Assembly (NCBI GenBank): GCA_039000165.1
Contig: JAWBTW010000004.1
Location: forward strand, 4,228-32,370
Length of the DNA stretch: 28,143 nt
Source of the DNA: Candidatus Aenigmatarchaeota archaeon
GTDB taxonomy: Archaea > Aenigmatarchaeota > Aenigmatarchaeia > CG10238-14 > SCSR01
Direction of reading: 5' to 3'
Positions 161 to 27,356 of this stretch are shown piece after piece (the stretch's first letter is position 1; the number at the start of each line of letters is the position of its first letter). The notes under the pieces were generated by a model, which saw nothing but the letters and a program-made list of their open reading frames with translations, made no database searches and was not told where the DNA came from. The translations under genes and the position numbers were made by a program.

Positions 161-2447
161 ATTCCTTTTCATTTCTCTCGATTAAATTGTTAAAAGCTTG
201 CATAGGACTTTCTTTCTTCCTTTTCATTTCCATCTTTATGTCTGAGAGCAGGTTTTTAATTCTTTCCCTTTCTCTAACTTTTTTCTTCGTTTTCTTGAGT
301 ATAAAGGCTAAGGAAAAACAGAAAAAAGCAAAAATCGAAATGTAGATTAAATCAGATTTTGTTAAAGGTAATTCAGGTAAGCTGAAAGCAGCAGAAGGCA
401 TGCTTATGTTTTGAGTTATATTTTCGCTCAGAATTGTTAAACCAATAACTTCTTCCCTGGAAAAATCTCCTGAATAAACTTTGAAAGTTAGGCTTAAAGT
501 TTCTTCTTTTGCATCGCTTGGAATAATAAAAATAACAGGAATGTCAACCTTTTCCCCTATTCCAATCTTATCTACTTTTTCTTGAAGCTTAAAGTAGTTT
601 TCAGGCAAACCTGTCAAGCTCAAAAATAAGTTTAAAATTTCAGCTTGACCTGTGTTTACCAAGGAAAATATTATCGTTCTATTTTCTCCTTTTAAAATTC
701 TTATAGTATCTGGAACTACTATCGAAACTTCTTTCTTCTTGAAAACTTGAAAAGTTAAAGACTTGTTTGAGCTTAGGTAAGAGCCTTTTTCTGCAGTTAT
801 AAAAACTTTATAAATTCCCTCGCTTTCTGGAGCCAAAAACTCGAAGTAAAATATTCCAGAAGAGTCAGAATAAGTTGAAAGATTGAGCCCAAAATCTGAG
901 CTAACTTTTATTAAAGCGTTTGAAACCAAGTTATTAGTTTCATCTTTAACCAAACCTCTAACCTTAACAACTTCTTTCAAGCTATAAGAATTTTTGTCAA
1001 AAGAAAAATCTATAACTAAAAATTTTCTTGTCCCCACTGCATAAGCTGATAAACTCTTTGTCTCTATAATAGCTAAGTTGCTAACTGTATCTATGGTTGC
1101 TACTTCTTTCTTCCATTCTGAGTTGCAAAGCTTGTTTGAGGGATTAAAGTCGCTACACTTGTAAACAACTAAATCCTTTTCGTTAGCAACCTTTCTTTCA
1201 TCATACTTCATCAAAATTTTAGCACTCGAATAAGGAAGTTTGAACTCAAAAACAAAAAGTCCTGCAACTTTTATTCCTTCCACATCGCTATCAAAGAAAT
1301 AATACTTTATAGGATCTTCAAAGCTGCTAACAGCTACGTTATAAAGGTAAAGAGTTGCTTGAGGGAAGATTACCTGCAAATCATAATTTCCAGGAACCAG
1401 AAAGCCAGAATAAGAGCCTGAAGAATCTGTAACAAACCTTTTTTCCTGCCCATCTTTTAAAAACTTTATTTCAGTGGGAATTCCTTGGTTATTAATATCA
1501 ACAATTTTCCCAAAAGCTTGAAAAACATAAGCTATTGTTTTTTTCTGTGCTACAGAATAATTTTTGTAGTTCATGGTAACTGTTAAATCATATTCTCCTG
1601 GACTCAGTTCAGGGGCTTGAAACTCTAGCTTAAAAGCATTCCCTGAAGAATACAAGTTTATCTTATCTTTTTCTATTTCTTCTGAACCCACTTTAATCGA
1701 CAAATAATCTTTTGTCAATAAAACTGGTTCCCCTCTTTCTAGAGCAGAAATCGTTAGGGTAATAGAATCTCCTGCTCTTACTTCCTTTTTATCTAAGAAA
1801 AAGCTTAACTCTAAGGGTTGCTTAACTTCAAGAGTTTTTTCAAGTTTTATTTGCTTGTTTCTGTAGCCTTGGACAGAAACGTTGACTAAAACTTCAAGGT
1901 TGTAAGTTCCTAATGTTTTTGGAACTTCTATCAGTAAAGTATAGGAAGGAGAAGAATAATACCAACCTTTTAAGTTTAACGGTTTGGTAGAAAAACTAAC
2001 CTGAGCTTCGGTTAAAGGCAAATTATCTTTTTTGATCGAAAGAACAAGCTTTGCCACTTCATCCCCCAAATAACCTTGGCTTAAAGATTCTATACTTGCC
2101 TCAAGAGTAGAGACATAAAAGTTGGAAAGAGAAGAGAATTCTCCTGAAGAATTCTTGCAAGTTAGGTTAATCGTATAAAGAAAAGGTTTCAAAGTATTTT
2201 CAAAAACATAACTAGGAATTTCTGCTCTAAAAACATCTTCTTTTGTAAAGGGGAAATCCATTTTTATAGGTTGTTCTATTCTTCCAGAAACTTGTGAAGC
2301 GTTGCTACAGTTAACTAAAATTTCAATTTTTTCGCATTCATCAGCTAAGCAAAAAACGTTTTCTGGACTAAGCCTAACTTCAAAAGCATAAGCTTTGCTT
2401 AGAATAAAGAAAAAGACAAAAGCTGAAAGAAAAAAGAGCTTTTTCAT
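153..2447 (-). CDS. Large membrane-anchored multi-Ig-domain surface protein (carboxypeptidase-regulatory-like, PGF-pre-PGF-like and NPCBM-associated/COG1470-like modules)
   Basis: Start moved to ATG 2447 (MKKLFFLSAF..., ATGA overlap with the MinD stop). Signal peptide ending AYA; beta-rich repeats (TDSSGSYSG, SDSSGIFYF, LVNTGQAEILNL); C-terminal TM helix and basic cytoplasmic tail. Confidence 0.8.
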   Translation of the reverse strand: MKKLFFLSAFVFFFILSKAYAFEVRLSPENVFCLADECEKIEILVNCSNASQVSGRIEQPIKMDFPFTKEDVFRAEIPSYVFENTLKPFLYTINLTCKNSSGEFSSLSNFYVSTLEASIESLSQGYLGDEVAKLVLSIKKDNLPLTEAQVSFSTKPLNLKGWYYSSPSYTLLIEVPKTLGTYNLEVLVNVSVQGYRNKQIKLEKTLEVKQPLELSFFLDKKEVRAGDSITLTISALERGEPVLLTKDYLSIKVGSEEIEKDKINLYSSGNAFKLEFQAPELSPGEYDLTVTMNYKNYSVAQKKTIAYVFQAFGKIVDINNQGIPTEIKFLKDGQEKRFVTDSSGSYSGFLVPGNYDLQVIFPQATLYLYNVAVSSFEDPIKYYFFDSDVEGIKVAGLFVFEFKLPYSSAKILMKYDERKVANEKDLVVYKCSDFNPSNKLCNSEWKKEVATIDTVSNLAIIETKSLSAYAVGTRKFLVIDFSFDKNSYSLKEVVKVRGLVKDETNNLVSNALIKVSSDFGLNLSTYSDSSGIFYFEFLAPESEGIYKVFITAEKGSYLSSNKSLTFQVFKKKEVSIVVPDTIRILKGENRTIIFSLVNTGQAEILNLFLSLTGLPENYFKLQEKVDKIGIGEKVDIPVIFIIPSDAKEETLSLTFKVYSGDFSREEVIGLTILSENITQNISMPSAAFSLPELPLTKSDLIYISIFAFFCFSLAFILKKTKKKVRERERIKNLLSDIKMEMKRKKESPMQAFNNLIERNEKEST

Positions 2448-3391
2448 TTCCTTAACCCCCATAAAATGCTTTTAATCCTTTCTGAAAGTGAGGAAGAGTA
2501 GGTAAAGCCTAAAAGCTTTGCAGCTATTCTTTTAAATTCCAAAGAAGCCTTAGAATAAGGGTTGAGGAAAAAGGCTGGGAACTGTTTGTGAATGCTTTTT
2601 CTTATCGTTTTATCCTCTGGTATAACTCCAAGAACAGGAAGCTCACAAGCACTTTCTATTTCTTTATAGTTTAGCTGCTCTTTTTCTTTCCTGTAGCGAT
2701 TGACTATTATTCCCAAAGGTTTTGCACCAATTTCTTTACAAACCTCTATTGTTTTTATGGCATCTATAACAGAAGGAAGCTCAGGCAAGGTTACTACTAT
2801 CACTTCCTTACAAGCTTTTATTACTTCAACGCTACTCGAATCTAAACCAGGAGGAGAATCCACTAATACAATAGAATTTTCAAAAAAGTTCGAGCTCAAA
2901 ACTTTTGAAAGGTTGGAAATTTTTGCCTCTTCAAGGGAAAGAGAGGCAGGAATTATTCTTAACCCTGAAGGATGAATGTAAATCGCGCTAAGTATGTCTG
3001 CATTATCGTTTAAAACATCGTTAAGCGTTGTAGAGAAATAGTACATACCAAGCTGCAAACCTAAGCCAGACATCTTTAAATCAGAATCCAAAGCTATTAC
3101 TTCTTTCCCAAAACTCATTAGGGCGCAAGCCAAGTTTATGGTAACTACAGTTTTGCCTACTCCACCTTTTCCAGAAATTATACCTATTGTTTTTGAGTTT
3201 TTTTCTTGTTTTAGAGTGTAAACGTTTGATTTGCCTACGACAAAAAGGTTAAGTTTGCCTTGCTGCCTTAAGCTTTCTAGGTAGCCTGAAGCTTTGTCTT
3301 TGCTTATTCCTAGAGAATTTGCTACTTGCGTTACTGACATCAAATTTGAACTTAGTAAAGATAGAATTCTTCTTTCGATATTCTCTTCCAC
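2444..3391 (-). CDS. minD: wHTH-MinD/ParA family ATPase fusion
   Basis: N-terminal ~60 aa HTH (MSVTQVANSLGISKDKASGYLESL); deviant Walker A SGKGGVGKT; DSDL; Walker B LVDSPPG; C-terminal amphipathic helix LSERIKSILWGL. Confidence 0.88.
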   Translation of the reverse strand: MEENIERRILSLLSSNLMSVTQVANSLGISKDKASGYLESLRQQGKLNLFVVGKSNVYTLKQEKNSKTIGIISGKGGVGKTVVTINLACALMSFGKEVIALDSDLKMSGLGLQLGMYYFSTTLNDVLNDNADILSAIYIHPSGLRIIPASLSLEEAKISNLSKVLSSNFFENSIVLVDSPPGLDSSSVEVIKACKEVIVVTLPELPSVIDAIKTIEVCKEIGAKPLGIIVNRYRKEKEQLNYKEIESACELPVLGVIPEDKTIRKSIHKQFPAFFLNPYSKASLEFKRIAAKLLGFTYSSSLSERIKSILWGLRK

Positions 3392-4206: not shown

Positions 4207-4707
4207 TCACACCAAGCTTTCAAGAAAAGTAAAGTTTGGCTTCTTAACTATAACATCTATTTGCCCTGAAAAATTTCCTATTTTTTGGTCTTTAGAAGTG
4301 TTAAGAAAAACTACTATCGTTTCAGACTGGTTTGGGTAGAGAATAAAATTGTCCTTGCTAAAGCTAACAAAAGGTTTGATCTCGCCGTAAACTTTAAAAT
4401 AAACTCTCACTCTACTTTTTTCAAAGTTTGAGATAACAACCTGCCTTCTTCCGTAACCTGATAAAGGAATTACCCCAAAGTTAAGGTTCCATGGATCTGT
4501 AGCCAAGCCTACTGTTATGTTTTTTTCCTCAAAAGGAATTATCTCTACTCTTGAAGGATAGCTTGTTACTTCAAAAGTGAAGAAAAAGTTTGAAGATTTT
4601 TGAAAGCTCATGTTTTCTGCTAACCTTTTTGGTTCAGAGTACCCTGGAAATAAGGCCATAAGCACTGCTAGAAAAATTAAAAATAAGATAAAAATTTTAC
4701 TCTTCAT
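4207..4707 (-). CDS. Secreted/anchored single-Ig-domain protein
   Basis: Start likely ATG 4707 (MKSKIFILF). N-terminal hydrophobic helix; LNFGVIP...FSKDNFILYPNQ...GNFSGQIDV Ig-like pattern; overlaps the upstream gene stop. Confidence 0.7.
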   Translation of the reverse strand: MKSKIFILFLIFLAVLMALFPGYSEPKRLAENMSFQKSSNFFFTFEVTSYPSRVEIIPFEEKNITVGLATDPWNLNFGVIPLSGYGRRQVVISNFEKSRVRVYFKVYGEIKPFVSFSKDNFILYPNQSETIVVFLNTSKDQKIGNFSGQIDVIVKKPNFTFLESLV

Positions 4708-5644: not shown

Positions 5645-5740
5645 ATTATTAATTTGAAGTTTCAAAATTTTATTCTTGAAAAAATTATCTTTAATATTTA
5701 ACAATAATGTTTAAATATCAAGGTAAACAAAATTTTATAT
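5645..5740. promoter_or_regulatory. Divergent promoter region; TATA box TTTAAATA (5710-5717) for the 291-aa gene
   Basis: Very AT-rich intergenic gap between divergent ATGs; TATA ends about 24 nt before ATG 5741, consistent with a leaderless archaeal transcript. Confidence 0.55.
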
Positions 5741-6616
5741 ATGAAGATTGAAAAATTGGCTCTTTTAATCAGTTTAGCAAGTTTGCTGGGAGTAGCTTTT
5801 ACAGTAAGCTTAACTAAGCCAGCTTTTTCAGAAACTTCAAACCAGACAAACGTTACTGTAGAAGTAAAAGGAGTTTGCCAGATAACAGTTGCACCAACAA
5901 ACCATACCTGGTTTAGCGTTACTCCAGGCTCAGAAGGAGGAGTAAAAACATTAAACATAAGAAATAGTGGCTCAAAAAACCTTACAAATATTTATGGCTA
6001 TGTTGACACACTCACAGTAGAAACCACTAACCCAATTCCTACAGGTGATCCTTCAAGATATGCTTCCGGTGGAGTTCTTGTTTTAAACGCAGGAAGTGGC
6101 TTTTATTATGTAGGAAGGTTGGAATGGAATGTGAGTAAACCAGCAGGAGCAGGTAGTAGTTATTGTGATGCAACATGGTCAACTTGGGGTTGGTACAGAA
6201 ACGCTACTGTAGGGAATTATCTTTGGTGTATGGTTAACGCAAGCGACGGAACTTGTAATGCAAGTAACGCAAAAATCTATATAGAATCTGATGTTGACAC
6301 AGGTGACCCAAGTACAAGAGACCCAGATAAAGGTGGCAACGTTGAAAGCCAAGGTCCAGATTGGGCAATATTTGGTTTTAGTGATGGACCTTTGGCTGGA
6401 CACTGTGTAGCCTTATACAAAGACTGCACAAAAATATACATATATAAATATGATCCAACCTTTGGCGACTGCGATATGGAAAGTTTCATAAGAACAGAAG
6501 CCTTGACACCAAGCTCAGAGTTTTCAGTTAGCTTAGACGTTTGGGTACCAAAGGGAATTCCAGCAGGATGGTTAGCTTCTAATTGGCTAACTATTGAAGG
6601 AAGCTGCCCACCATAA
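5741..6616 (+). CDS. Secreted 291-aa protein, candidate major filament/surface subunit
   Basis: Sec signal peptide (AFS); N-terminal alternating strand QTNVTVEVKGVCQITV; VTPG; LNIRNSGS; C-terminal LDVWVPKGIPAG...LTIEG; 8 Cys; no membrane anchor; several N-x-S/T sequons. Confidence 0.65.
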   Translation: MKIEKLALLISLASLLGVAFTVSLTKPAFSETSNQTNVTVEVKGVCQITVAPTNHTWFSVTPGSEGGVKTLNIRNSGSKNLTNIYGYVDTLTVETTNPIPTGDPSRYASGGVLVLNAGSGFYYVGRLEWNVSKPAGAGSSYCDATWSTWGWYRNATVGNYLWCMVNASDGTCNASNAKIYIESDVDTGDPSTRDPDKGGNVESQGPDWAIFGFSDGPLAGHCVALYKDCTKIYIYKYDPTFGDCDMESFIRTEALTPSSEFSVSLDVWVPKGIPAGWLASNWLTIEGSCPP

Positions 6617-8267: not shown

Positions 8268-8744
8268 ATGGAATTTAGCAACCATTCAGTAGTAACACTT
8301 CAAATACTTTTGAAAATGATTATAGTTAATATAATAGTCCTACTAGCACTTGTTTGTGTGCATGAGTTTGGCCATTTAACTATTGGCTTACTTACAGGCT
8401 GCTCAAGCGCAAGAATTGTTCTTTTTGACACAAGTAGAGAAGGCCCTTATACTGAGCTTTTTTGCAATTCTTCTAATTCATTAACTTATTCAGGAGGAAT
8501 TTTGTTTAGCTTGGCTTTTTCTTCGCTTTTCCTTTTTTTAAAAGAAGCTGAAGACAAAAAGCTTTTTTTTGTAGCTGTTGGTTTATCCTTAATGCTTTCT
8601 GGCCTTGACATAATAGCTTTAACTTCCACTTACTTTTCCTTTTATTTTACAACAATTTTTGGTTTTTGTCTTACAATCTTTGGAGAGTACAACATAACTT
8701 TAAACTATGTAAAAAAAGAAGAGCTTTTAAAGTACTACCTTTGA
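8268..8744 (+). CDS. Small HExxH integral membrane protein (M50/site-2-protease-like)
   Basis: TM helix ending VCVHEFGH, about 4 hydrophobic segments, candidate third ligand in SGLD. Confidence 0.6.
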   Translation: MEFSNHSVVTLQILLKMIIVNIIVLLALVCVHEFGHLTIGLLTGCSSARIVLFDTSREGPYTELFCNSSNSLTYSGGILFSLAFSSLFLFLKEAEDKKLFFVAVGLSLMLSGLDIIALTSTYFSFYFTTIFGFCLTIFGEYNITLNYVKKEELLKYYL

Positions 8745-8815: not shown

Positions 8816-9577
8816 TTGGCAAGGGTAATAGGGATAATTTCTGGAAAAGGAGGAGTTGGAAAAACAACTTTGACCGCAAACTTAGGAGCTTCTTTAGCAC
8901 ACTTTTTCAAAAAAAACGTTACTGTTATAGATTGCAACATAACAACTTCCCACTTAAGCCTTTACTTGGGAATTCACTTTTGTCCAACTAGCTTGAACAA
9001 AGTTTTAAGGAATGAAATCTCCATAGAAGAAGCGCTTTACAAGCATTATAGCGGAGCCAACATTGTTCCTGCCTCTTTATCCTGGAAGGATTTGGAAGGC
9101 GTGGATGTAATTCAAATTAAAGATAGTATAAAAAAGCTTTTTGACAAAACTGATATAATATTGCTCGATGCTGCTCCTGGTCTAGGAAGGGAAGCTTTAG
9201 CTGCTATAAAAGCTTGTGATGAAGTTATTTTTGTTACCACTCCTTATGTTCCTTGCGTTATGGATGTTATAAGATGCTTAGAAGTTGTGAACGAAATTGG
9301 AGTTAAGCCCTTAGGAATTGTTTTAAACATGGTTGGGAATGAAAGATATGAGATGAAAAAAAAGGAAATAGAGCAGCTTACTGGTTTGCCAGTAATTGCT
9401 TCAATTCCTTCAGACAAAAATGTTTTAAAAAGCTTAGCTTTAAGGACTCCTGTTGTTCTTTTTAACAAAAAATCAAAAGCAAGCAGAGAAATAATAAAAC
9501 TTGCTGGCAATTTGATAGGAGAAACCTATAGAGAAGAAGGATTTTTCTCAAGAATTTTCAAAAAGCTTAGGTTATAA
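8816..9577 (+). CDS. minD: MinD family ATPase
   Basis: TTG start; ISGKGGVGKTT; LLDAAPGLG; C-terminal membrane-targeting helix GFFSRIFKKLRL. Confidence 0.9.
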   Translation: MARVIGIISGKGGVGKTTLTANLGASLAHFFKKNVTVIDCNITTSHLSLYLGIHFCPTSLNKVLRNEISIEEALYKHYSGANIVPASLSWKDLEGVDVIQIKDSIKKLFDKTDIILLDAAPGLGREALAAIKACDEVIFVTTPYVPCVMDVIRCLEVVNEIGVKPLGIVLNMVGNERYEMKKKEIEQLTGLPVIASIPSDKNVLKSLALRTPVVLFNKKSKASREIIKLAGNLIGETYREEGFFSRIFKKLRL

Positions 9578-10186
9578 GAATTTGTAAATTAGGAAAGAGA
9601 TTAATAAAATTAAAACTATTGCTGAAGCTAAAATTGCAAACCTTAGGTCAAAGCTTGGCAAAGAGATTCTTGAACTTATTTTTTCTTCTTCACTTACTTG
9701 CTTGCTCTTTTCTTTCTCTTGGGCCTCTGAAGAAAAATGTTCAAGAATTTTTATCTTGAAAACAAAAGTTTTTTCTTGAGCAACTTTAATTCCTGAGTCT
9801 AAGCTTTCTGCTCTTGTTTTTATTCTTATTTCATTCTCTCCTTTTGCAGAATCTAAGGCTTTAATCAAAACTTTTACTGGAAATGCTTTAACATCACCTA
9901 CTGAAAGCTTAACGTATTCTCCTTCCTCGTAAGGAGGACCAATTTTAGAAGCGTTTAACAAAAATTCTTTTGGCTCAACTATTACAACAAAACTTTCTGG
10001 TGAAAAAGGTTCAAGAGTAACGAAACAAGAAGAGTTTTCAAGATTCCAGAAAAGAAGAGTAAATTCTTTCGTTTCTCCTTTTACCATTTCTGCATAATTG
10101 CCTTTTTGCAAGCTTCCAAAGCTTAAAGCTTTAGCAAAAGGAATAAATAAAAGGAAAAATATTGCAATCAAAATTTTCTCTTTCAT
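9572..10186 (-). CDS. Signal peptide + Ig-like domain + C-terminal TM anchor
   Basis: Start likely ATG 10186 (MKEKILIAIF), just after the adhesin stop; AKA cleavage site; KGETKEFTLLFWN; charged linker; C-terminal TM. Confidence 0.7.
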   Translation of the reverse strand: MKEKILIAIFFLLFIPFAKALSFGSLQKGNYAEMVKGETKEFTLLFWNLENSSCFVTLEPFSPESFVVIVEPKEFLLNASKIGPPYEEGEYVKLSVGDVKAFPVKVLIKALDSAKGENEIRIKTRAESLDSGIKVAQEKTFVFKIKILEHFSSEAQEKEKSKQVSEEEKISSRISLPSFDLRFAILASAIVLILLISFLIYKFL

Positions 10187-10187
10187 T

Positions 10188-12941
10188 TCAATCACACAAC
10201 GAAGAGCAATTTCCACATATCGTTATGGTTCCTTTATAAATTCCTGCATAAACGCTTGGTACAGAAAGCCAGTAGTAGAGTGTTAAGTTTGAGTTTGGTG
10301 GAAGAGCAGAATAAAGAAGCTTGTAATAATAGTCAAGAGGATAAACTGTGCTTGGGTTGTAAATATTGCTTGAATTGCTCCAGCTTAAATTGCCAACAGC
10401 TATAAAGGAATTGTAAGTTGAATTTGTAAGGTCTGTTCCTTTAATCCAAATGTTCGGACTGCATGCTCCTATAACTGTTATGTTGTATAAATTGTTTTCA
10501 TTTCCAGGGGCAGGGTTGTTTTCTGCTGGAGTGCTTGGAGTTAAAAAGCCAAAGTCTATAAAGTCCCAAGACAAAATCAAGCTTTCTATTTCTATTCCAG
10601 AAACAATAGTTATTGTTGAATTTTGAGTGTGGTTTTGCTGAACTTCTGTTAAAGAAGAATTAAAAAGTACACCAATTTTCCAGACCGAATTAACATCACC
10701 ACTTGCATTAACAACCCAAGTTAGATTGCAGAATTCATTCTCATCTAAAGGATTTGTTGGGCAAGCTTTCGTTGCTAAAGCAAAAGCTTCTTGAATAAAA
10801 AATGGTTTATCTCCTTCAGTTGTGCTTATTGGTGTATCTGGAAAAGGAGAAGAAGCGTTATATCTTACGGTTCCGTAAACGTTGCCACAACTTCCAGCTT
10901 TACAGTAAACTGTTGCATTTATAATAAAGGTAGAATTCTGAGGAACGTTGTAGCTTAAAGGCGGTGATGAAAGCCAAGCTTCCAAATAAGGGGGTGAAGG
11001 AAATGGACATACTGTTAGGTTGTTGTAAATTATGTTGTAAGGTGAAGAAGTTCCTTTTCTATAGATAAACTCTACACAATCTTTTGACTGATACTTTGAA
11101 TTTGGATAAACGTTATCTCCTGCGATATCTGTAGTAATCCAGACAGGATTTTCCCAACTTCCAGAATTATTCCTGTAAATTATGTTCCATCTTTTATTAT
11201 TAGTTGTGTCGTTTTGCTGCCATAAAACAAGAGGATAGCCTAAGGAATTGGTTGTTACACTCGGATATCGAGCTTTGCTTGTATCTATTATAGTATCAAT
11301 TCTTTCTCCGGTCCAGGTTGAACCATAATCAGAGCTTGAGTTAAAGTATATTTTATTATCTGAAGAATAATAGGTAACATAAACTTTGCTTCCATTATAA
11401 GTTATGCTTGGGGTAAAGAATTCAGTTTGGTCTGAAAAAATTACATTTCTGTACGGAGACCAGCTGACTCCTGAATTAGAAGAATTTTTATAAGTGATAA
11501 AATAGTAAAGGATACCAGTATCGTAACTTTTTTCCCTGGCAACAATATGTATTCTATCGTTTGAGCTTCCGTTTCCGTCAACAGCAATAGAAGGCTCGTA
11601 ATAATAAAAAGCAAACTGAAGTATTTGTCCTACATATGTTTCATACCCATCAAATACAACTTTTATTGGACCCCATGTATTCCCAGCATCGCTCGAATTA
11701 AAAAACTCTATATCAGTTGCATCTTCATTATCTTGATAAACAACATAAATTCTTTGCCCCCTTCTTTCAACGCTAACGTATTCTCCTATCCCACTTGAAT
11801 AAGGAACTTTCTCTTCAAAGCTTTCTCCGTTGTTTTCTGAGATATAAATTACAACTCCTGAAGTTCCATTTCTATAAGCTATAGTTATATTATTACCATC
11901 GCAAGAAATTGAAGGCAAGCCTTTTGAGCCAGTTGAATTAACTATCGTGTTATTAATTATCCAAGTTTTACCGTTATCTATGCTTCTAGCATAACTTATA
12001 GTATTAGCATCGTATTTCCAAACAATATGTATATAATTTTTCCCATCTCTACAAATTGCTCTTTGGTTTGGAGAAAAAGGGACTGTTGTGGTTGTTGGAA
12101 AATAGGGTGTAGTTGTATAGCTGAAAGGATTTTGACAAGAACTTCCATTCCAGTTATTATTAGTGTCATTGACATAAACGCACCACCTTATAGTACACCC
12201 AACAGTTGAGTTTATTACTACACTAAAGTTACTCCATGCTTCAGTTCCAGACAAGCTCATACCTGAAATATTTTGTAACCTCCCTGTACAATTATCAAAG
12301 CTGAAAATGGCATAGCTTAACCCAACATCATCAGTCCATTTCAAAGAATGTTGTACTACACTTCCTGCTACAGTTGAGTTCGTTGAATTAAGAGAATATT
12401 GAGGTGGTTGTATGTCTTGAACTGCTATTATTCTTTCTTGTGATACGTTTATCTCGCCTGCTGAATCGTTAGCATACTGCTTCCATACAATTTTTTTCCC
12501 TGCACAAGCTGTCGGAATGATTTGAGTTTCGTTGTGCCAAATAGAATTAACATTATTTCTTGGTGTAAAAGAGATGTTTACCCAGGTATCACAATTTACT
12601 CCTGAAGCATTCCAAGAAAACCAAGTATAGTTTATTCCTAAGCCTTTTCCTGCTGCACCAACAACATCAGTCCAGTTAACACTAAACTTTACTGCATCTC
12701 CTGGGTTTGGGTTTGTACTATTTTCAGAAGGGGTAAACCATTTTGGGGCTTGGTTCTCGCAGCCATTAGTTACTATTCCATCATCGTTGAACCAGCCGGG
12801 ATTGCAAGTATAAGTGCAACTTCCTGTAGAAGAGCAAGTACAACTTCCTCCACTTCCTAAACAGCACCAGGCAGCCAAAACATTTTTTATACTAATAAAG
12901 AAAAGGACAAAAAAAATGAATGCAAGCCATTTTTTTCTCAT
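10188..12941 (-). CDS. 917-aa secreted adhesin-like protein: Cys-rich N-terminus, Ig-like repeats, Asp-box (BNR) beta-propeller, C-terminal pilin/WxL-like domain
   Basis: ATG 12941 with GTGGTG SD; signal peptide VLA; Asp boxes SIDNGKTW, SENNGESF, SSDAGNTW, SSNSGVSW, SSDYGSTW; C-terminal IDFGFLTP...YWLSVPSVYAGIYKGTITI; no TM anchor; many sequons. Confidence 0.8.
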   Translation of the reverse strand: MRKKWLAFIFFVLFFISIKNVLAAWCCLGSGGSCTCSSTGSCTYTCNPGWFNDDGIVTNGCENQAPKWFTPSENSTNPNPGDAVKFSVNWTDVVGAAGKGLGINYTWFSWNASGVNCDTWVNISFTPRNNVNSIWHNETQIIPTACAGKKIVWKQYANDSAGEINVSQERIIAVQDIQPPQYSLNSTNSTVAGSVVQHSLKWTDDVGLSYAIFSFDNCTGRLQNISGMSLSGTEAWSNFSVVINSTVGCTIRWCVYVNDTNNNWNGSSCQNPFSYTTTPYFPTTTTVPFSPNQRAICRDGKNYIHIVWKYDANTISYARSIDNGKTWIINNTIVNSTGSKGLPSISCDGNNITIAYRNGTSGVVIYISENNGESFEEKVPYSSGIGEYVSVERRGQRIYVVYQDNEDATDIEFFNSSDAGNTWGPIKVVFDGYETYVGQILQFAFYYYEPSIAVDGNGSSNDRIHIVAREKSYDTGILYYFITYKNSSNSGVSWSPYRNVIFSDQTEFFTPSITYNGSKVYVTYYSSDNKIYFNSSSDYGSTWTGERIDTIIDTSKARYPSVTTNSLGYPLVLWQQNDTTNNKRWNIIYRNNSGSWENPVWITTDIAGDNVYPNSKYQSKDCVEFIYRKGTSSPYNIIYNNLTVCPFPSPPYLEAWLSSPPLSYNVPQNSTFIINATVYCKAGSCGNVYGTVRYNASSPFPDTPISTTEGDKPFFIQEAFALATKACPTNPLDENEFCNLTWVVNASGDVNSVWKIGVLFNSSLTEVQQNHTQNSTITIVSGIEIESLILSWDFIDFGFLTPSTPAENNPAPGNENNLYNITVIGACSPNIWIKGTDLTNSTYNSFIAVGNLSWSNSSNIYNPSTVYPLDYYYKLLYSALPPNSNLTLYYWLSVPSVYAGIYKGTITICGNCSSLCD

Positions 12942-12951
12942 AACACCACTT

Positions 12952-14025
12952 TCATCCAAAGCAAGCAATAAAAGTTCCACAACAACTACTTGAAGAAGCA
13001 GGAACTGCTTGGCATGTGTTTGAGCTTAAGTAAGAGTTTGGATAAGGAGAAGGACAGCTTACTGTACAAGATGTTAAAATGTAGCAATTTCCTACGGTAC
13101 ATTCAAGCAAATAATTATTGTAGTTGCAAGAGCAAGTCCCTCCAACATTGCAAGCTAAAGTATAGCCAGATGCGTCTTCCCAATAAAATTCTGAATTTTT
13201 CTCTTCACCAGGAGCAACGCTTCCTATATGCTGCTTCAAAGTTATTACTGAATTGTACTGCCCCTCGTCACTAACATTTAACTCATAATCATAATCACTT
13301 AGCCAATCAAGCCTTATTCTCCATAAAACCAAATCCTTGTAATTCCTTTTGTGAACTTCGTACTTCTTTTCTTTCAAATAAGTTGAGTTGAAAATAGCAT
13401 CTAAACCATGCAAATCATAGACTTCAACTTCATTCAAAGTTGAGTTTATAACAAAAGCATTATCTTCATAAGAATTGTTTATTTTTATCTCAGTAGTTTT
13501 CCACCAAAACCAAAGGTCATCAATAGCTTTTGAACCAGTATTATAGCCATAAAAACTTACGCTAAGCTTTCTGTCATGATCTTTAAGGAAATACCTAACC
13601 TTAAAGTAAAACTTATAACCTCCAGGTGCAGTATATTCCTTTGAAGTACCGTTGAGTTCAACCCATGTTGCTTCTTCGTTTGTTGCGTTAGTCCATGTTA
13701 ATTCAAAAGAATCTGTGCAAATTCCTTCGAATTTAAAATTTCCTGCAGTTGCATTAATGCAAATCCAATTTTTGCTCCACCAGTTTGGTAAGTCTTGAGT
13801 AATTTGAAGGCCTGAAGTTTTATTTATCCAGTAAACCTCTTGATCGTTCCAAATTTTAAAGGTTTGTGTTGTTGAATTGTACTCAAGAAAAGTAGAATTT
13901 CTTGGTTTACATTGAGCTTTAACTAAAGTAAAATTGCTTTCAACTAATTTATCTTTTTTCATCTCTATTAAATTCAAAGCCAAAGCCAAAACGAACACAA
14001 GTACTATTATTTTTGATATTTTCAT
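12952..14025 (-). CDS. Secreted/N-anchored beta-rich protein with Cys-rich C-terminal tail
   Basis: Hydrophobic N-terminus; Trp/Asn-rich beta-sandwich-like core; 11 Cys in the last ~70 aa; 10 nt upstream of the adhesin ATG. Confidence 0.7.
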   Translation of the reverse strand: MKISKIIVLVFVLALALNLIEMKKDKLVESNFTLVKAQCKPRNSTFLEYNSTTQTFKIWNDQEVYWINKTSGLQITQDLPNWWSKNWICINATAGNFKFEGICTDSFELTWTNATNEEATWVELNGTSKEYTAPGGYKFYFKVRYFLKDHDRKLSVSFYGYNTGSKAIDDLWFWWKTTEIKINNSYEDNAFVINSTLNEVEVYDLHGLDAIFNSTYLKEKKYEVHKRNYKDLVLWRIRLDWLSDYDYELNVSDEGQYNSVITLKQHIGSVAPGEEKNSEFYWEDASGYTLACNVGGTCSCNYNNYLLECTVGNCYILTSCTVSCPSPYPNSYLSSNTCQAVPASSSSCCGTFIACFG

Positions 14026-14370: not shown

Positions 14371-14488
14371 TTTTCCACCTAATTTTCATTTTAAAGAAAA
14401 GAAATATAAACTCTTCTCTTGCCTATTTAAACATTACTTTCGAAAAGTGGTAACATACTTTTATGCTTAAGAAAAAGAAAAATTAATT

Positions 14489-18426: not shown

Positions 18427-18463
18427 AATTATTTTTTTTGCTTCTATTTAAAAATTGCTAACC

Positions 18464-18494: not shown

Positions 18495-18781
18495 GCAGGA
18501 GGCTAGGTCGCGGAGCTAGGCCTTCCGTGCTGCTGAAAAAAGCAGTGGCAAATGGTCTATATGGCCGACCGAAGCCTGAGGGCGGCATAAGTTTTCAGAG
18601 AGGTCCAAGCTTCCGACTGAGAAGCCTCGCCTTTCAGGGTGGGTAGCCTAACGAAACCGAGGAGGTCCGGAAGGAAGCACTCGTAAGTTAGGCTGTCTCA
18701 TGCTTGAAAGATACGGGGTGGAGAAGGAAGTTTGGAGCAACCTTTCTGGAAGCTTATGCCCACCGAAGGCGTGCCTCCTGC
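18495..18781 (+). ncRNA. ffs: Signal recognition particle (7S/SRP) RNA
   Basis: GC-rich island; terminal helix GCAGGAGGC/GCCTCCTGC; long helix 5 (GGCATAAG/CTTATGCC, TCCAAGCTTCC/GGAAGTTTGGA, AGCCTAAC/GTTAGGCT); helix 8 signature AGG-TCC-GGAA-GGA-AGCA. Confidence 0.93.
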
Positions 18782-18821
18782 AATTTCTAAAAATTTAAAT
18801 TTTAAAAAGGAATTAAGTGAT

Positions 18822-19571
18822 ATGGAAGACAGTCTAAAAATCATTTTAATCGCTATAGCTTTGCTCATTGTCTTTTCCGTTGCTTCAAACATCACTCTCA
18901 AATCAATAATCTTACCAAACATAACAGTAGGGGAAAGAACAAAAATAATATTAAGTAATGAGAGCGTTCTTAAAAGCTGGATGTACATACCTGCTGTTGA
19001 TTCTGAAGGAAACGGTGTTGTTACAAAGCTAATAGTTGAAGCAAAACCTGGAACAGGAAGAGTTTTGGTTGACATAAATCAGCTACTTTTCTGGGTTGAT
19101 ACTCAACACTCTATAAGAGTTGCTCAAAAAGTTGCTCAAAACTACACTAAGATAGATTTGTCTAACATAGATTTAATATATGCTATAGAAACAAATGCTT
19201 CTGTCATAGGTGGGCCATCAGCAGGAGCTGCTATGACGATTGCTACAATAGCTTTAATCGAAAATAAAACCTTAAATCAAAGTGTTATGATAACAGGGAC
19301 TATAAACTCTGATGGAAGTATTGGACCAGTAGGGGAAATAGTTGCAAAGGCTAAGGCTGCAAAAGACATAGGAGCCAAACTGTTTTTAGTTCCTTTAGGC
19401 CAAGCAATTCAAACTTATTACAAGCCGATAGAGCACTGCGAAAGGTTCGGACCAGTAACTTACTGTTCTACTGAATACAGACCAGAAAAAATAGATGTAA
19501 GCAAAGAAGTTGGAATTAGTGTTAAAGAAGTTAGTAATATTCAAGAAGCTTTACAATACTTTTTAATCTAG
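18822..19571 (+). CDS. Membrane-anchored S16 (Lon C-terminal) serine protease lacking an ATPase domain
   Basis: Start moved to ATG 18822 because the track start lies inside the SRP RNA; N-terminal TM; GGPSAGAA catalytic Ser; TGTINSDGSIGPVGEIVAKAKAA with dyad Lys. Confidence 0.88.
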   Translation: MEDSLKIILIAIALLIVFSVASNITLKSIILPNITVGERTKIILSNESVLKSWMYIPAVDSEGNGVVTKLIVEAKPGTGRVLVDINQLLFWVDTQHSIRVAQKVAQNYTKIDLSNIDLIYAIETNASVIGGPSAGAAMTIATIALIENKTLNQSVMITGTINSDGSIGPVGEIVAKAKAAKDIGAKLFLVPLGQAIQTYYKPIEHCERFGPVTYCSTEYRPEKIDVSKEVGISVKEVSNIQEALQYFLI

Positions 19572-19579
19572 GTGATACC

Positions 19580-20179
19580 ATGCAATACTTTTCGAAGGAA
19601 GAAATAAAAGATATAATAATTTCTGTCTTAGTTGTTTCGCTAATTTTCTCTTATAACGTTCGCGATCCAAAAAGAACTTTTGAGCTTTTTCCCTTTTATT
19701 TGATAATAGTTGTTCTTACTTTCCTTCTTCATGAACTGGCTCACAAAAGTGTTGCGAGGAAATTTGGCTGTTTATCCTTTTATAAAATGTGGACAACAGG
19801 GCTTTTAATCAGTTTAATTTTCATGCTTTTAGGTTTCAAATTCATAGTTCCTGGTGCTGTTGTAATCTATCCTTTCACTTTTGGAAGATGGGGGTTTAGA
19901 AGAATAAGGTTAACTGCTCAGGAAATTGGTTTAATATCGGTTAGTGGAATCTTGGTAAACATTTTTATCGCTTTAATTTCTAGACCTCTAGTTGGTTTGT
20001 TTTTTGTACAAAATTTTGATTTTTTCTTCGCTCTATCTTCTATCAACTCTTTCCTTGCTTTCTTCAACCTTTTACCAATTCCTCCCCTGGACGGAAGTAA
20101 AGTTATAGTATGGAAACTTTGGCTTTGGTTCTTCCTGTTTGTTATTTCTATAGGTTTATTTTTATCCTTCGCTTTCTAA
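19580..20179 (+). CDS. Site-2 protease (M50) zinc metalloprotease
   Basis: AGGTGA SD; LHELAHK; FNLLPIPPLDGSKV; multiple TM helices. Confidence 0.92.
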   Translation: MQYFSKEEIKDIIISVLVVSLIFSYNVRDPKRTFELFPFYLIIVVLTFLLHELAHKSVARKFGCLSFYKMWTTGLLISLIFMLLGFKFIVPGAVVIYPFTFGRWGFRRIRLTAQEIGLISVSGILVNIFIALISRPLVGLFFVQNFDFFFALSSINSFLAFFNLLPIPPLDGSKVIVWKLWLWFFLFVISIGLFLSFAF

Positions 20180-21575: not shown

Positions 21576-22298
21576 ATGAAAAAAGGTATTTCAGTGGCAC
21601 TAGAAATTATTTTTATAGTTGTAATCTTGATAGTTGTTACTTTTATCATCATTAGATTTTTCACAGGAGTTGTTGGTCCATCTAGTTTACCGAACATACA
21701 AGATTTCAGAGAGGCTTATTATTATGAGAACCAAAAAAATTATTGCGAAAACCTATGTAATAGGTATATTCAAGGTGGTTGTAAAGATCAAGGCGCTGCA
21801 GCATCATATTGTTTACAACATGTTTCACTCAGCATAGATGGTAATAATGTTCTAGCAGAAAGAGGACATTATGGAATGATCACAAACTTACCCTACTGTG
21901 AAGATGGGTTGTATTGTTTCCACATATATGAGTGTAGTTGTGGATACTATAAGCTTGACGCAAGAGGTTGTCTTTTCCTCCTTCAGACCTATTATATGGA
22001 AGAAAATGGTTTTAACGAAACTATCACAAAATCTTTAATTTGTTCTAGCATTACTCCAGGTTCTTGTTGTCCTGAACCAACAACGTGCAACCCAAAAAAA
22101 TGGAAAATAAAACCAGAAGGTTTTAACGCAACAACTTATCCAGAAATAGACGCAACTCATTGGTGGGCAAATGCAGGATATAAAGAATATTGTGGCGAAA
22201 CCACATCTTCGGAAGGCTCAAGCAGCAGTCTTTCACTTCAGTGTAACGGTGGTGCTGGTACTATAGAATGCACGTGGGATGGTTGCTTGATGAGTTAG
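21576..22298 (+). CDS. Cys-rich protein with class III (archaeal pilin-type) signal peptide; C-terminus apparently interrupted
   Basis: MKKG|ISVALEIIFIVVILIVV; many Cys; Ser linker followed by the start of a further domain cut by TAG. Confidence 0.7.
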   Translation: MKKGISVALEIIFIVVILIVVTFIIIRFFTGVVGPSSLPNIQDFREAYYYENQKNYCENLCNRYIQGGCKDQGAAASYCLQHVSLSIDGNNVLAERGHYGMITNLPYCEDGLYCFHIYECSCGYYKLDARGCLFLLQTYYMEENGFNETITKSLICSSITPGSCCPEPTTCNPKKWKIKPEGFNATTYPEIDATHWWANAGYKEYCGETTSSEGSSSSLSLQCNGGAGTIECTWDGCLMS

Positions 22299-22491: not shown

Positions 22492-22568
22492 AAAGCGACT
22501 TTTGTATCATTTGAGGTTATACATTCTCAATTTTATTTTTAAATACCATTAAGAATAGTAAAATTAGA

Positions 22569-22956: not shown

Positions 22957-23805
22957 CTATCTCTCTGTTATCGTAATTGTTGGTGTTGTTTTTTCTTGAT
23001 AGTAATTGTACCTTACCGTTACTGTAACTAGGTAATCATTAAGTATTTCAATTTCATCAGGTTGAATTGCTGCCTCGCAGATTATTATTCCCATAGTTTT
23101 GCCAACTAAATCAACTGTTGGGTTAGTACCTTTACAAGCATCGTCGCTACTTTCAGAAAAAGTAAGACCTGGAGCTGAAATGTAAACGTCAACTTGATCC
23201 AAACCTTTCTCTTGCTCTGGGGTTCCACCTACTTTATAAGCTCTTCCGTCTCCTCTATTAGTTAGTATTATCTTGATATTCACCCTTCCTTCCTCATCTG
23301 GATAAACGTAAGAAGCGTCGCCTTCAAATTCTATCCTTATTGGCCCGCCTAAATCATTTGTTATTGATGACGAAACTAAACCTGGTTTTTCGTTAGTTGG
23401 TGTTCCATATTTTACAACTCTGTAACTCGCACTTCTATTGGTCTCTACCATATAATTAACTCTTGCGTGAATATTAGCACTTCTAGGTACAGAAGTTCTA
23501 ATATTCCATGTGAATATTCTTTCTCCATTAGGCTCTATCCTAGGTGCACTTTTTTCCCCGCCTAAATCCCATTCCACCGGACCGAAGAGTGCTGCTTTCA
23601 CGTCTCTTATAGGAAAGAGGGCTTTATTTGAAACAGTTAAAACAACTGAAATTGGTGTGTTTTTAGGAGCAGTAAGTGGAGTTACGTTCAAACTAACAGA
23701 AATTCTACCTCCAGTGACTGTTACATTCTGTGGAGGTTGACCGATACATCCTGAAAGAAATACGACAGTTAAAAGAGCGATTCCAACAATAATGTACTCT
23801 TTCAT
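22957..23805 (-). CDS. Lipoprotein with CARDB-like Ig domains
   Basis: Lipobox FLSGC; VLTVSNKA...IEPNGE; LTNRGDG; ends V.YNYYQ; paralogue of the upstream gene. Confidence 0.75.
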   Translation of the reverse strand: MKEYIIVGIALLTVVFLSGCIGQPPQNVTVTGGRISVSLNVTPLTAPKNTPISVVLTVSNKALFPIRDVKAALFGPVEWDLGGEKSAPRIEPNGERIFTWNIRTSVPRSANIHARVNYMVETNRSASYRVVKYGTPTNEKPGLVSSSITNDLGGPIRIEFEGDASYVYPDEEGRVNIKIILTNRGDGRAYKVGGTPEQEKGLDQVDVYISAPGLTFSESSDDACKGTNPTVDLVGKTMGIIICEAAIQPDEIEILNDYLVTVTVRYNYYQEKTTPTITITER

Positions 23806-23847: not shown

Positions 23848-24723
23848 TTAACCCATAGGTTTAATCGTAAAGCTCTGAGTTCTAAAGAAAGTGTAAGTAT
23901 AGTTATAAGTTGCTTCGATTAAAACATCTAATTCCGAACCTTCAAAATCCTCTGATTTAAAGAAACAGTAAAGAGAATCAGAAGGATTGAGAAATAGTTC
24001 TTTAGTTGACTTATAAGAGTCATCAAAATGCGGACAAGGTGATGTTTTAGACAGTTTGTATACTGTTAAAACAATGTTACCTGCCGGAATTTTGGGAGTT
24101 TTTTTGTTCGTATAGGTTCCGATGTCAGTTAGTAACATCTCTACTTTGAATGGTATGGCTTTTTCTCCGTAACTTGCTTCTGCTAATTTAAATTCAAACT
24201 TAATAGGACCATCACCAAATTGAGTTGAAGAAAAACTAGCTAAAGGTTTTGTTAAAAGAGTTTTATCTATTATTGGAATTACAGCTTGCGCTTTTCTTGA
24301 AACATCATACTCAACAAAAAAGTTCACAGGTATTCCAGCTCCTGATGGTGGAACTATATCAGGAGCAAAAACTTCAAGTTTGACTTCTCTATCCTCTCCT
24401 GATTTCAAATTATAGAAAATGCATTCTGAATCTTTAATTTCAGCTTTATAACACTTTAAATTGTAATTTTTAAAGCCACCTAAGTTGAAAAATGTTAATT
24501 TTACTTTTTCGACAGTTTCTTTTCCCTTGTTTTTAACGGTAAACCTTAAAGTAGCTGAAGAGCCGTTATAGATTGTTGAATCTGAAATTTCATAATTCTC
24601 GATAACTATTATGTCTTTTACGTAAGGTGCTGTTTGATTAGTGGGTTGATTTATACATCCTGAAAGGAACACAGCTAAAAATAGAAAAAGTATTATAAAA
24701 ATTAATTCCACCATTTCTTTCAT
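23848..24723 (-). CDS. Lipoprotein with CARDB-like Ig domains
   Basis: Lipobox FLSGC; FTVKNKG...LKSGEDREV; GPIKFEF; ends ATYNYTY. Confidence 0.75.
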   Translation of the reverse strand: MKEMVELIFIILFLFLAVFLSGCINQPTNQTAPYVKDIIVIENYEISDSTIYNGSSATLRFTVKNKGKETVEKVKLTFFNLGGFKNYNLKCYKAEIKDSECIFYNLKSGEDREVKLEVFAPDIVPPSGAGIPVNFFVEYDVSRKAQAVIPIIDKTLLTKPLASFSSTQFGDGPIKFEFKLAEASYGEKAIPFKVEMLLTDIGTYTNKKTPKIPAGNIVLTVYKLSKTSPCPHFDDSYKSTKELFLNPSDSLYCFFKSEDFEGSELDVLIEATYNYTYTFFRTQSFTIKPMG

Positions 24724-26696: not shown

Positions 26697-27356
26697 ATGA
26701 AAATTCTTGAAAAAGACTTTAAAAAAGGCTTTGTCAGGCTTATCCCTGAGAATTTTCTAGACTTATGGCATCTTTCTAAAATAATTGAAGCTAAAGATAA
26801 GATAACAGCCAAAACAGTAAGAAACATTTTTGTTGAGAGAGAAGGGAAAAAAGTAAAATCAAGAAAAGTTGCTTTGGTCCTTTCTCTTGAAGTAGAAAAA
26901 GTTGGAATAGAAAAAAACAAGTTGAGAATAAAAGGGAAGATATTAGAAGCCCCAAAAGAAATTCAAAAAGGAAGCTACCACACGATTGAGATTCTTGCAG
27001 GAAATAGTTTTATCCTAGAGAAAAAAGAATGGAGAAAAGAGCAGATGGAAAAAATAGAAAAACTGACAAGAAGAATTAAAAAAGCTTACTCGCTTAAAGA
27101 ATTTTTTGCTCATATAAACAAGCTTGACGGTTTGGCAATTTATGGTTTGGAAGAAGTTAGAAATGCGGCCTTATTTGGAGCAATTAAAATTCTTTTTGTT
27201 CCTTTAGAAGGTTTAAATGAAAAAACTGAAGAAGTAATAGAAGAGGTTGAGAAAAAAGGTGGAGAAATAGAATTTGTTAGCGAAAAGGAAGAGTTGGGTA
27301 AAAAATTTTTGAAAGAATATGGAATCGGAGCAATCCTTAGGTTTAAAATTAGCTAG
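26697..27356 (+). CDS. pelA: Pelota/Dom34 homologue, shortened (domains 1 and 3 only)
   Basis: PENFLDLWHL..II...D, LRIKGKI, GSYHTIEI (eRF1_1-like); AIYGLEEV..A..FGAI, GIGAILRF (eRF1_3-like); only 219 aa. Confidence 0.85.
   Translation: MKILEKDFKKGFVRLIPENFLDLWHLSKIIEAKDKITAKTVRNIFVEREGKKVKSRKVALVLSLEVEKVGIEKNKLRIKGKILEAPKEIQKGSYHTIEILAGNSFILEKKEWRKEQMEKIEKLTRRIKKAYSLKEFFAHINKLDGLAIYGLEEVRNAALFGAIKILFVPLEGLNEKTEEVIEEVEKKGGEIEFVSEKEELGKKFLKEYGIGAILRFKIS

Follow-up and report, generated by a model that had tools for sequence, protein, structure and literature searches.

Does the strand that follows the signal peptide of a secreted Aenigmatarchaeota protein belong to the protein's own fold, or is it handed to the next copy so that the copies join head to tail? 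The question is raised by one gene in a 28,143-nucleotide stretch of DNA from Candidatus Aenigmatarchaeota archaeon (assembly GCA_039000165.1, contig JAWBTW010000004.1, positions 4,228 to 32,370 of the forward strand), the whole of which was analysed and is called the window below. The window has a G+C content of ~33% and bears archaeal marks, namely a tRNA-intron endonuclease, a Pelota-like protein, AMMECR1 and two archaeal MinD-type ATPases. The gene, hereafter the target, is an ATG-initiated open reading frame (ORF) of 291 codons at 5741..6616 (+), as read from the ORF listing and its translation. An initial annotation had put it forward as a major subunit with an N-terminal donor strand. 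We find that the target family and the gene module around it are new to annotation, and we regard it as quite possible, if somewhat short of probable, that the target is the subunit of a strand-exchanged fibre or tethered array that polymerises by its donor strand.

Residues 2-26 of the target are hydrophobic by hydropathy, the leader ends in PAFS followed by ETS, and the signal peptide is modelled as a helix over residues 3-22 by AlphaFold2 (AF2). A signal-peptidase-I (SPase-I) site is predicted at A28-F-S30/E31, with cleavage after S30; across 193 aligned full-length relatives, to which the conservation values of this paragraph refer, the cleavage-site columns hold V/A/S at -3 and A/S at -1. 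The hydrophobic segment is confined to the N-terminus, the hydropathy profile shows no C-terminal anchor, and a secreted, anchor-less protein is supported. A spacer of 5-7 polar residues separates the cleavage site from the motif [VI]-x-[VI]-x-[VI], which occupies positions 38/40/42 and marks a strand that is present in every N-terminus sampled. The columns of V38, V40 and V42 have entropies of 1.0-1.1 bits, as against 2.5-3.5 bits at neighbouring columns, and the positions between them are polar and often form N-x-S/T sequons. Near-invariant residues of the target are P52, N75, G77, S78, P98, G150, P270, G272 and G276. Conserved sequons occur at N80, N130, N154 and N173 and in the column of N116, where the site is lost in the target itself, which has 8 sequons. 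We infer from these sequences that the four sites, the N116 column and the N-terminal tail may be N-glycosylated. The elements that the initial annotation had pointed out are all present and exceed chance expectation: the signal peptide, the strand TNVTVEV (36-42), CQITVAP (46-52) followed by TW and VTPG, the C-terminal motif LDVWVPKGIPAGWLASNWLTIEGSCPP with which the protein ends, and a middle rich in Cys and Trp (8 Cys overall; Trp at 129, 146, 149, 151, 162 and 208).

The family that shares this N-terminus is sharply bounded. A single-sequence search recovered 97 clusters at E<=0.01 among 2157 candidates, with lengths of 215-332 aa; wherever a name is given, it is 'hypothetical protein' and the source is Aenigmatarchaeota or an archaeon without classification, apart from one nr label that reads Nanoarchaeota. 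An exhaustive search of representatives at 50% identity found at least 150 proteins at E<=1e-3 (95 at E<=1e-10 and 42 at E<=1e-30), and a profile of 142 members retrieved 93 proteins, all of them belonging to the family (the weakest at 8.4e-42) and none with a Pfam domain. The ESM Atlas, which holds no structure for it, places the target sequence in a 539-member cluster that is 99% archaeal, with Aenigmatarchaeota as the commonest phylum. When the GTDB species representatives were scanned with 16 closer sequences, 28 loci were located, all in metagenome-assembled genomes of Aenigmatarchaeota or uncultured archaeon, the best being L001 with 95% protein identity. Pfam and NCBIfam give no match for the target protein, and PDB sequence (phmmer) and profile searches give nothing below E = 1. 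A search for longer fused or tandem forms found none, returning 3 bacterial proteins with multiple immunoglobulin (Ig) domains (ASH/DUF1573/CARDB) that cover 12-13% of the query each, and literature searches found no paper describing the target family or locus. We also observed that a separate protein of 1552 aa, P0192, has 9 stretches matching query residues 226-264, the C.KIYIYKYD..C region (E 7.1e-10), which suggests that this small disulfide-bearing unit also exists as a repeat elsewhere.

The AF2 model of the target, built with 76 sequences, is all-beta and confident (predicted local distance difference test, pLDDT, 91.8; predicted template-modelling score, pTM, 0.83). Strands run at 48-51, 69-75 and 81-88, ten more lie within 113-235, and the last two are 260-269 and 283-288. 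The first strand is therefore 48-51, and residues 23-47, which include the conserved post-cleavage strand, take part in no DSSP ladder. The first strands and the last two carry a sequence pattern like that of ASH/CARDB/NPCBM_assoc Ig domains and would form an Ig/ASH-like bracket around a family-specific insertion of ~165 residues. Direct-coupling analysis of 221 sequences (effective number, Meff, 186) gives C222-C244 as the top coupling (3.50), with C172-C229 at 1.20; disulfides as the top signal validate the coevolution analysis. Both cysteines of the C172/C229 pair are present in 195/221 sequences, both of C222/C244 in 162/221, and a Cys near position 142 together with C163 in 22/221. C46 and the C-terminal Cys occur together in 10/221, including one distant member, P0137; either stands alone in only 3 and 2 sequences, respectively, and 206 have neither. 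As judged by this co-occurrence, C172-C229 and C222-C244 are probably family-wide disulfides, and C142-C163 and C46-C289 are probably disulfides of the window's clade. The C46-C289 pair and the I48-G287 coupling (1.26) place residue 46 at the C-terminal pole of the domain.

The bracket pattern had initially been described as typical of Csu/spore-coat-U, WxL and TasA-like pilins, an assignment that no family library bears out. No pilin family matches the target in the Pfam, NCBIfam and family-member scans, no usher-like protein is found among the window proteins, and for WxL (PF13731) there is no Pfam match and the Atlas feature, at 0.77, falls short of the 0.9 taken as a lead. Peptidase_M73, the TasA family (PF12389; gathering score 22.5 bits), is reached below threshold by P0087 (15.7 bits, E 0.013) and P0066 (14.8 bits, E 0.026), and in these 2/75 members the sub-threshold matches are co-linear, over the signal peptide and first strands. 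NPCBM_assoc appears in 5/76 members, at best with 21.7 bits against a cut-off of 24.4, and over the last two strands only. In Foldseek comparison with the PDB, the highest homology probability belongs to the TasA fibre 8aur_A (probability 0.77, E 1e-2, template-modelling score, TM, 0.25/0.30), and two more donor-strand subunits, TLP-1a (9ikj) at rank 19 and that of the cannula (9h8b; E 0.13, probability 0.35) at rank 41, are listed as well, all three being sub-significant. A fold search of BFVD gave a sole match at E<=1e-3, Pyrobaculum spherical virus VP3 (TM 0.14/0.15), which was rejected as a fold match and offers no evidence of a link to viral capsids.

Coevolution indicates where the unpaired strand might dock. 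The ladder partner that scores best for strand 36-45 is the segment 277-282 (z 4.2; 81st of 61,256). The E41-W277 coupling of 1.44 exceeds the 99.9th percentile of 1.13. Direct-coupling analysis is blind to whether such a contact is made in cis or in trans. With residue 46 at the C-terminal pole and residues 274-283, ahead of the last strand, at the other pole, a 41-277 contact within one chain would seem geometrically awkward. A like arrangement is seen in the neighbouring protein B245, whose orthologs have an N-terminal strand of the form xVKVEVKDxC, compared with NVTVEVKGVC in the target, and whose residues 19-32 are likewise unpaired in their own AF2 model. The initial proposal of an N-terminal donor-strand subunit thus stands in part: a secreted, anchor-less protein with a conserved post-cleavage strand outside all AF2 ladders, encoded in a surface-assembly locus and with sub-significant Foldseek matches to donor-strand subunits, speaks for it, while membership of Csu, WxL or TasA fell away and the strand may yet lie in cis.

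Several observations weigh against donation of the strand. Its pLDDT (79 for the block 31-40 and 96 for 41-50) is above the expectation for a free tail, and AF2 may be packing it against the domain to which it belongs, with no regular ladder. The short linker K43-G44-V45, with a conserved hydrophobic V45, is what a single Ig domain with a kinked A/A' strand would show; Ig domains in B245 and E428 begin with a like N-terminal pattern, and at equivalent positions one subgroup of B245 carries a Cys pair, for which the simplest reading is in cis. The orientation of the 36-45 ladder is ambiguous (antiparallel z 4.2, parallel z 3.8), and the E41-W277 coupling tracks clade-specific residue pairs and may be phylogenetic. 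Foldseek against the PDB returns 0 matches at E<=1e-3, the Pfam gathering score is reached by 0/76 family members, and no significant similarity to known donor-strand subunits was found by Foldseek, PDB sequence and profile searches or Pfam. In addition, the module is without a polytopic membrane platform or dedicated signal peptidase in Pfam/NCBIfam and window scans.

The target sits in a conserved cell-surface module together with the anchored multi-Ig proteins A769, D335 and E428, the proteins C172 and B245, MinD ATPases and a winged helix-turn-helix (wHTH) regulator (Table 1). The module comprises seven to ten genes, nearly all for exported Ig-like proteins, plus the positioning ATPase. 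In distant loci the order is MinD, A769, a small wHTH gene, B245, C172 and D335; beyond D335 come the target, which is encoded by the opposite strand, and an E-family gene. L018 and L023 have the whole module on a single strand. The wHTH-MinD fusion of the window is replaced in distant loci (L012-L026) by the wHTH alone (~19% of the fusion protein) at the fusion position, MinD being a separate gene after A769. D335 lies within 1 kb of the target in 18/28 loci, and in L021 the two are less than 9 kb apart; 4/28 loci end at the target, where D335 is not judgeable, and L006-L009 and L019 have no D335 next to the target. The E-family gene adjoins the target in 20/28 loci. Tandem target paralogs are found in L012 and L018, and L006-L009 represent lone second copies in housekeeping surroundings, those of L006-L008 beside a 149-aa membrane protein.

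Hydropathy assigns N- and C-terminal hydrophobic segments to A769, D335 and E428, and an N-terminal one only to the target, B245 and C172. In profile-profile comparison (hhalign), links at 90-98% probability join the Ig domains of B245, D335, E428 and A769, for instance the D335 C-domain with the E428 N-domain (95.5%) and A769 residues 577-738 with E428 187-426 (97.5%). The same comparison of the target family with the neighbour families gives 54% for E428 (residues 3-83) and 13.8% for B245, neither significant, and paralogy is not claimed. B245 is modelled with a pLDDT of 92.7; its residues 19-32 are in no ladder, the 21-30 block having a pLDDT of 64, and in Foldseek it resembles tandem beta-barrel or fibronectin-type-III pairs, among them the C-terminal barrels of transglutaminases (3.4e-8) and RbmA (4kkp_A, 6.1e-7), a scaffold protein of Vibrio biofilms. 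Within the C172 family, ASH is matched by 7/14 members (best E 4.1e-5), HYDIN_VesB_CFA65-like_Ig by 4/14 and PapD-like (PF14874) by 3/14. PDB profile searches with D335, C172 and B245 gave nothing relevant. E428 has a ~90-aa stretch that was read by eye as a coiled coil.

Small genes that are absent from the window occupy the gap between D335 and the target in distant loci. One encodes a ~90-aa protein that looks PqqD/RRE-like by eye and the other a wHTH protein of 65-106 aa. Both are found in L012 (8150..8613), L013 (9254..9833), L014 (2549..3015), L017 (9259..9725), L020 (9371..9903), L025 (7639..8234) and L026 (9368..9963), and the wHTH gene only in L022 (9625..9915) and L024 (9644..9901). 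L012, L017, L025, L026 and L028 each have an M50B-like gene at a distance of 5-7 kb from the target; the window itself has small genes for M50-type membrane metalloprotease-like proteins at 8268..8744 (+) and 19580..20179 (+), and a gene for a Lon_C-like membrane protein at 18732..19571 (+).

If the target is a strand-exchanged subunit, its assembly may proceed as follows. After cleavage, T36-V45 would be free, with one face invariantly hydrophobic and the other polar and often carrying a sequon. It would exit the domain at the pole that bears the C-terminus. At the opposite pole of the next copy it would extend the 274-283 edge region by one beta-strand, and copies so joined head to tail would make up a fibre of the donor-strand type. 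Capping of this fibre or its attachment to the membrane would fall to B245 and E428, whose N-terminal strands are of a like kind; E428 would act through its C-terminal transmembrane helix. D335 and/or C172 might keep subunits membrane-bound until they assemble, and MinD might determine where assembly takes place. The most complete form of this proposal is a hitherto unseen, usher-less Aenigmatarchaeota fibre that would be the archaeal counterpart of the Pam pilus of bacteria of the candidate phyla radiation, with the target as polymer, D335 and C172 as tethered chaperones, B245 and E428 as cap and anchor, siting by MinD and, in the window's clade, a covalent Cys46-Cys289 lock. We consider this unlikely as a whole; were it true, the usher-less fibre could be the organ that holds ultrasmall archaea to their hosts.

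A strand that stays in its own domain would make the target a non-polymerising surface glycoprotein, either a lectin-like adhesin or an accessory subunit bound to the anchored Ig proteins, with residues 36-45 as its A strand or arm in cis, a real possibility that we place on the unlikely side. Here, the motifs GRLEWN, WG.YRN and EY.W would form a ligand or glycan site for host contact by a presumed episymbiont. Most Foldseek matches of the target are ConA-like jelly rolls (CBM66, GH16, ERGIC-53/LMAN1, and SraP/SasG/YwfG lectin modules), yet these lectin-like matches all have E>=1.6e-2, probability <=0.15 and TM<=0.18, and no carbohydrate-binding family is matched in Pfam. The strand's pLDDT suggests a defined position in the monomer, its pattern is common to the neighbours' ordinary Ig domains (54% with the E428 N-domain), one B245 subgroup has an equivalent Cys pair, and lone target paralogs exist outside the module. 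However, the AF2 model leaves the strand unpaired in cis even with 76 sequences and a pLDDT of 91.8, and several of the conserved Asn lie in N-x-S/T sequons and hence need not be ligand residues.

The neighbourhood of E428 also invites comparison with a two-component S-layer in the style of SlaA/SlaB, with the target as outer lattice (canopy) on an E428 stalk and the strand serving lattice or stalk contacts. The two genes are adjacent and co-oriented in the window's clade, an E-family gene is next to the target in 20/28 loci, and the target is secreted, anchor-less and has conserved sequons. E428 combines a signal segment, two beta-sandwich domains, a putative helical stretch of ~90 aa and a C-terminal transmembrane segment, which we take to be the architecture of SlaB. 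We nevertheless judge this reading improbable: 291 aa is far below the size of known archaeal lattice proteins, the window holds better candidates, in particular G930 with 42 sequons and 25 Cys, and genomes with 2 or more divergent target copies and tandem paralogs are more typical of pilins. Neither SlaA nor SlaB is among the Foldseek matches listed for the target. The Foldseek matches further raise a secreted ConA-like enzyme of glucanase type, acting on host or environmental glycans, since GH16, GH32-type and GH38 proteins are among them and the acidic residues E94 and E128 are conserved. This is highly improbable, as those matches are non-significant (TM 0.05-0.18), neither Pfam nor NCBIfam returns a glycoside-hydrolase family, and the conserved context consists of structural surface proteins rather than transport or catabolism genes.

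Table 1. Features of the target gene and of the module around it, with window coordinates.
Feature	Position	Strand	Evidence or remark
Target ORF P0001, 291 aa, ATG start	5741..6616	+	Founder of an Aenigmatarchaeota-only family
Signal peptide (predicted), residues 1-30	5741..5830	+	Hydropathy; -3/-1 columns; helix 3-22 in model
N-terminal extension strand, residues 36-45 (TNVTVEVKGV), candidate donor strand	5846..5875	+	Conservation, AF2, coevolution
TATA-box-like element TTTAAATA	5710..5717	+	24 nt 5' of ATG; conserved spacing
First core strands, residues 46-88 (CQITVAP..W..PG..LNIRNSGS.N..IYGYV)	5876..6004	+	Strands 48-51, 69-75, 81-88; ASH/CARDB Ig-like pattern
All-beta insertion, residues 89-255; GRLEWN, WG.YRN, EY.W, C.KIYIYKYD	6005..6505	+	Cys pairs, conserved sequons
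C-terminal strands, residues 256-291 (LTPS..LDVWVPKGIPAGWLASNWLTIEGSC)	6506..6613	+	Strands 260-269, 283-288; C289 probably paired with C46
D335: signal peptide, two Ig-like domains, C-terminal transmembrane segment	4697..5644	-	Divergent from target; hydropathy
C172: N-terminal transmembrane tether and single Ig domain, ASH/PapD-like clan	4207..4707	-	Pfam, Atlas
B245: secreted tandem Ig/fibronectin-type-III-like protein, unpaired N-terminal strand, C-terminal helix	3466..4203	-	AF2, Foldseek
wHTH-MinD-type ATPase fusion	2444..3391	-	TIGR01969 7.2e-67 and HTH_5
A769: large multi-domain protein, signal peptide, C-terminal transmembrane segment	153..2462	-	CarboxypepD_reg 9e-15; in 14 loci
E428: N-terminal hydrophobic segment, two Ig-like domains, Pro-rich linker, C-terminal transmembrane segment	6698..7963	+	NPCBM_assoc 1.1e-9; directly downstream of target
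Small M50B-like membrane metalloprotease, HEFGH	8268..8744	+	PF13398 2.1e-6; in or near module in 8 loci
Second archaeal MinD-type ATPase	8816..9577	+	TIGR01969 7.2e-67; last gene of A769 operon in distant loci

The target was also said to have its own TATA box and a downstream hairpin, consistent with higher expression than its neighbours. The TATA-box-like element TTTAAATA holds good, as its distance to the ATG is constant in 6/7 aligned upstream regions (the window and L001-L005, not L010) despite indels in the flanks, and this spacing implies a leaderless or near-leaderless mRNA. The octamer is not rare in the AT-rich window, with 6 matches compared with 8.3 expected, and 4/6 sit 19-54 nt 5' of a gene or tRNA start. 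Further elements lie at 22538..22545 (+), 24-31 nt 5' of tRNA-Val (22569), at 18445..18452 (-), 19-26 nt ahead of the start of the 17986..18426 gene, and at 14424..14431 (-), 54-61 nt ahead of the 14089..14370 gene, a placement that would suit an organism whose leaders are short or missing. The hairpin did not survive comparison with chance: it folds at -9.9 kcal/mol (z = -0.45), 77/200 shuffles fold equally well or better, and a scan 3' of the stop codon found a T5 run only and no terminator. The codon bias of the target (effective number of codons, Nc, 39.3), taken as a proxy for expression, is no different from that of its neighbours (36.9-49.0). Three opposite-strand ORFs within the target gene, at 5698..5958, 6179..6403 and 6277..6489 (all -), were set aside as mechanical, the plus frame being conserved in all relatives.

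Elsewhere in the window, G930 (10188..12980, -) is an exported protein of 930 aa with a weak BNR-type glycosylhydrolase match. Conservation in other loci is limited to the C-terminal 26-35% of the protein, and the gene that comes next there is in every case F214 (9572..10216, -, in the window). As an S-layer protein or adhesin, G930 makes a stronger candidate than the target. The gene at 21576..22298 (+) encodes 240 aa with a type IV prepilin-like N-terminus (MKKGIS and a long hydrophobic stretch), 17 Cys and no Pfam match, and its product may be an archaeal type IV pilin-like protein. Two adjacent genes for exported proteins, at 22957..23805 (-) and 23848..24723 (-), have leaders that end in a lipobox-like LSGC (FLSGCIGQ and FLSGCINQ), one product having a weak NPCBM_assoc match. 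The Pelota-like protein (26697..27356, +) has 219 aa only and matches eRF1 domains 1 and 3, not the middle domain.

DPANN archaea are presumed to spend their lives attached to other cells. We know of very few contact molecules in this group, and of none described for Aenigmatarchaeota. The target family is large, sharply delimited, phylum-specific and unannotated. If its members are strand-exchanged fibre subunits, donor-strand filaments would extend to DPANN, and the module would be a second, independent case of usher-less, chaperone-tethered pilus assembly in ultrasmall symbionts and a concrete target for electron cryo-microscopy and host-attachment studies. Should the fibre reading fail, the target would nonetheless mark the phylum's main uncharacterised surface module.

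Among known systems, SlaA/SlaB shares with the locus an unanchored secreted glycoprotein gene directly 5' of a stalk with a beta-sandwich, a helical region and a C-terminal transmembrane segment. The differences are that no similarity was detected and that there are multiple target paralogs per genome; the target is also ~five times smaller than SlaA. For chaperone-usher systems, the locus offers only the ASH/PapD-clan matches of C172. The MoxR/vWA 'putative secretion system', as outlined by Makarova et al. 2015 (PMC5898192), was rejected as a parallel, its signature genes being absent at the locus.

Archaeal donor-strand filaments are established, with threads (PMC9715654), the bundling pili of AbpA (PMC9245690), and cannulae and AbpX (PMC12518558) as examples; all of these rely on SPase-I signals, N-terminal strands and glycosylation and do not need an usher. 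Donor-strand protomers are characterised by an extended N-terminal strand right after the SPase-I site and by heavy glycosylation (PMC11494351, PMC12518558, PMC9715654). In PMC12518558, Aenigmatarchaeota has a single mention, as a tree label, and Fig. 6b of that paper maps TasA-like proteins on the tree.

Similar to the TasA superfamily (TasA, AbpA/AbpX, CanX), the target family has a Sec/SPase-I-type signal, its cleavage inferred from the 193 sequences, and then, 5-7 residues on, an N-terminal strand; the body is all-beta, in the target perhaps a sandwich or jelly roll, and has no anchor, and extracellular assembly would be shared as proposed. The target body differs in being larger, through the ~165-residue insertion with its two conserved disulfides, and no SipW-type peptidase or TapA-like gene was recognised near the target, where MinD, wHTH and anchored Ig proteins are found instead. 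The thread subunit Saci_0406, as presented in PMC9715654, resembles the target in SPase-I processing, a strand after the cleavage site and heavy N-glycosylation, all of which are predicted for the target. It further resembles it in an AF2 monomer whose N-terminal strand is unpaired (an extended tail in Saci_0406) and in a neighbouring paralogous or minor subunit. In contrast, 7PNB is not among the Foldseek matches listed for the target, no isopeptide-bond evidence was found, the target has a putative clade-specific Cys46-Cys289 pair, and it belongs to another phylum and another gene neighbourhood.

The Pam pili of bacteria of the candidate phyla radiation (CPR), as set out in a 2026 preprint (PMC13278184), use two-domain chaperones with a transmembrane helix at the C-terminus, and their terminator is RbmA-like, with an extra N-terminal strand and a transmembrane helix. 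Shared with the target's locus are a host that is an ultrasmall presumed episymbiont without an outer membrane and a Sec signal on every component. B245 is RbmA-like, B245 and E428 have an extra N-terminal strand like PamR, E428 has a transmembrane helix, D335, with two domains and a C-terminal transmembrane segment, has the architecture of PamC/PamD, and C172 falls in the PapD/ASH clan. However, the target has a single domain with an insertion, compared with the two-domain PamA/B, and the MinD and wHTH genes do not figure in the description of the pam operon given in PMC13278184. The resemblance of the module to the usher-less Pam pilus is an analogy of architecture alone. Within known archaeal surface structures, the target system would be a variant not yet described.

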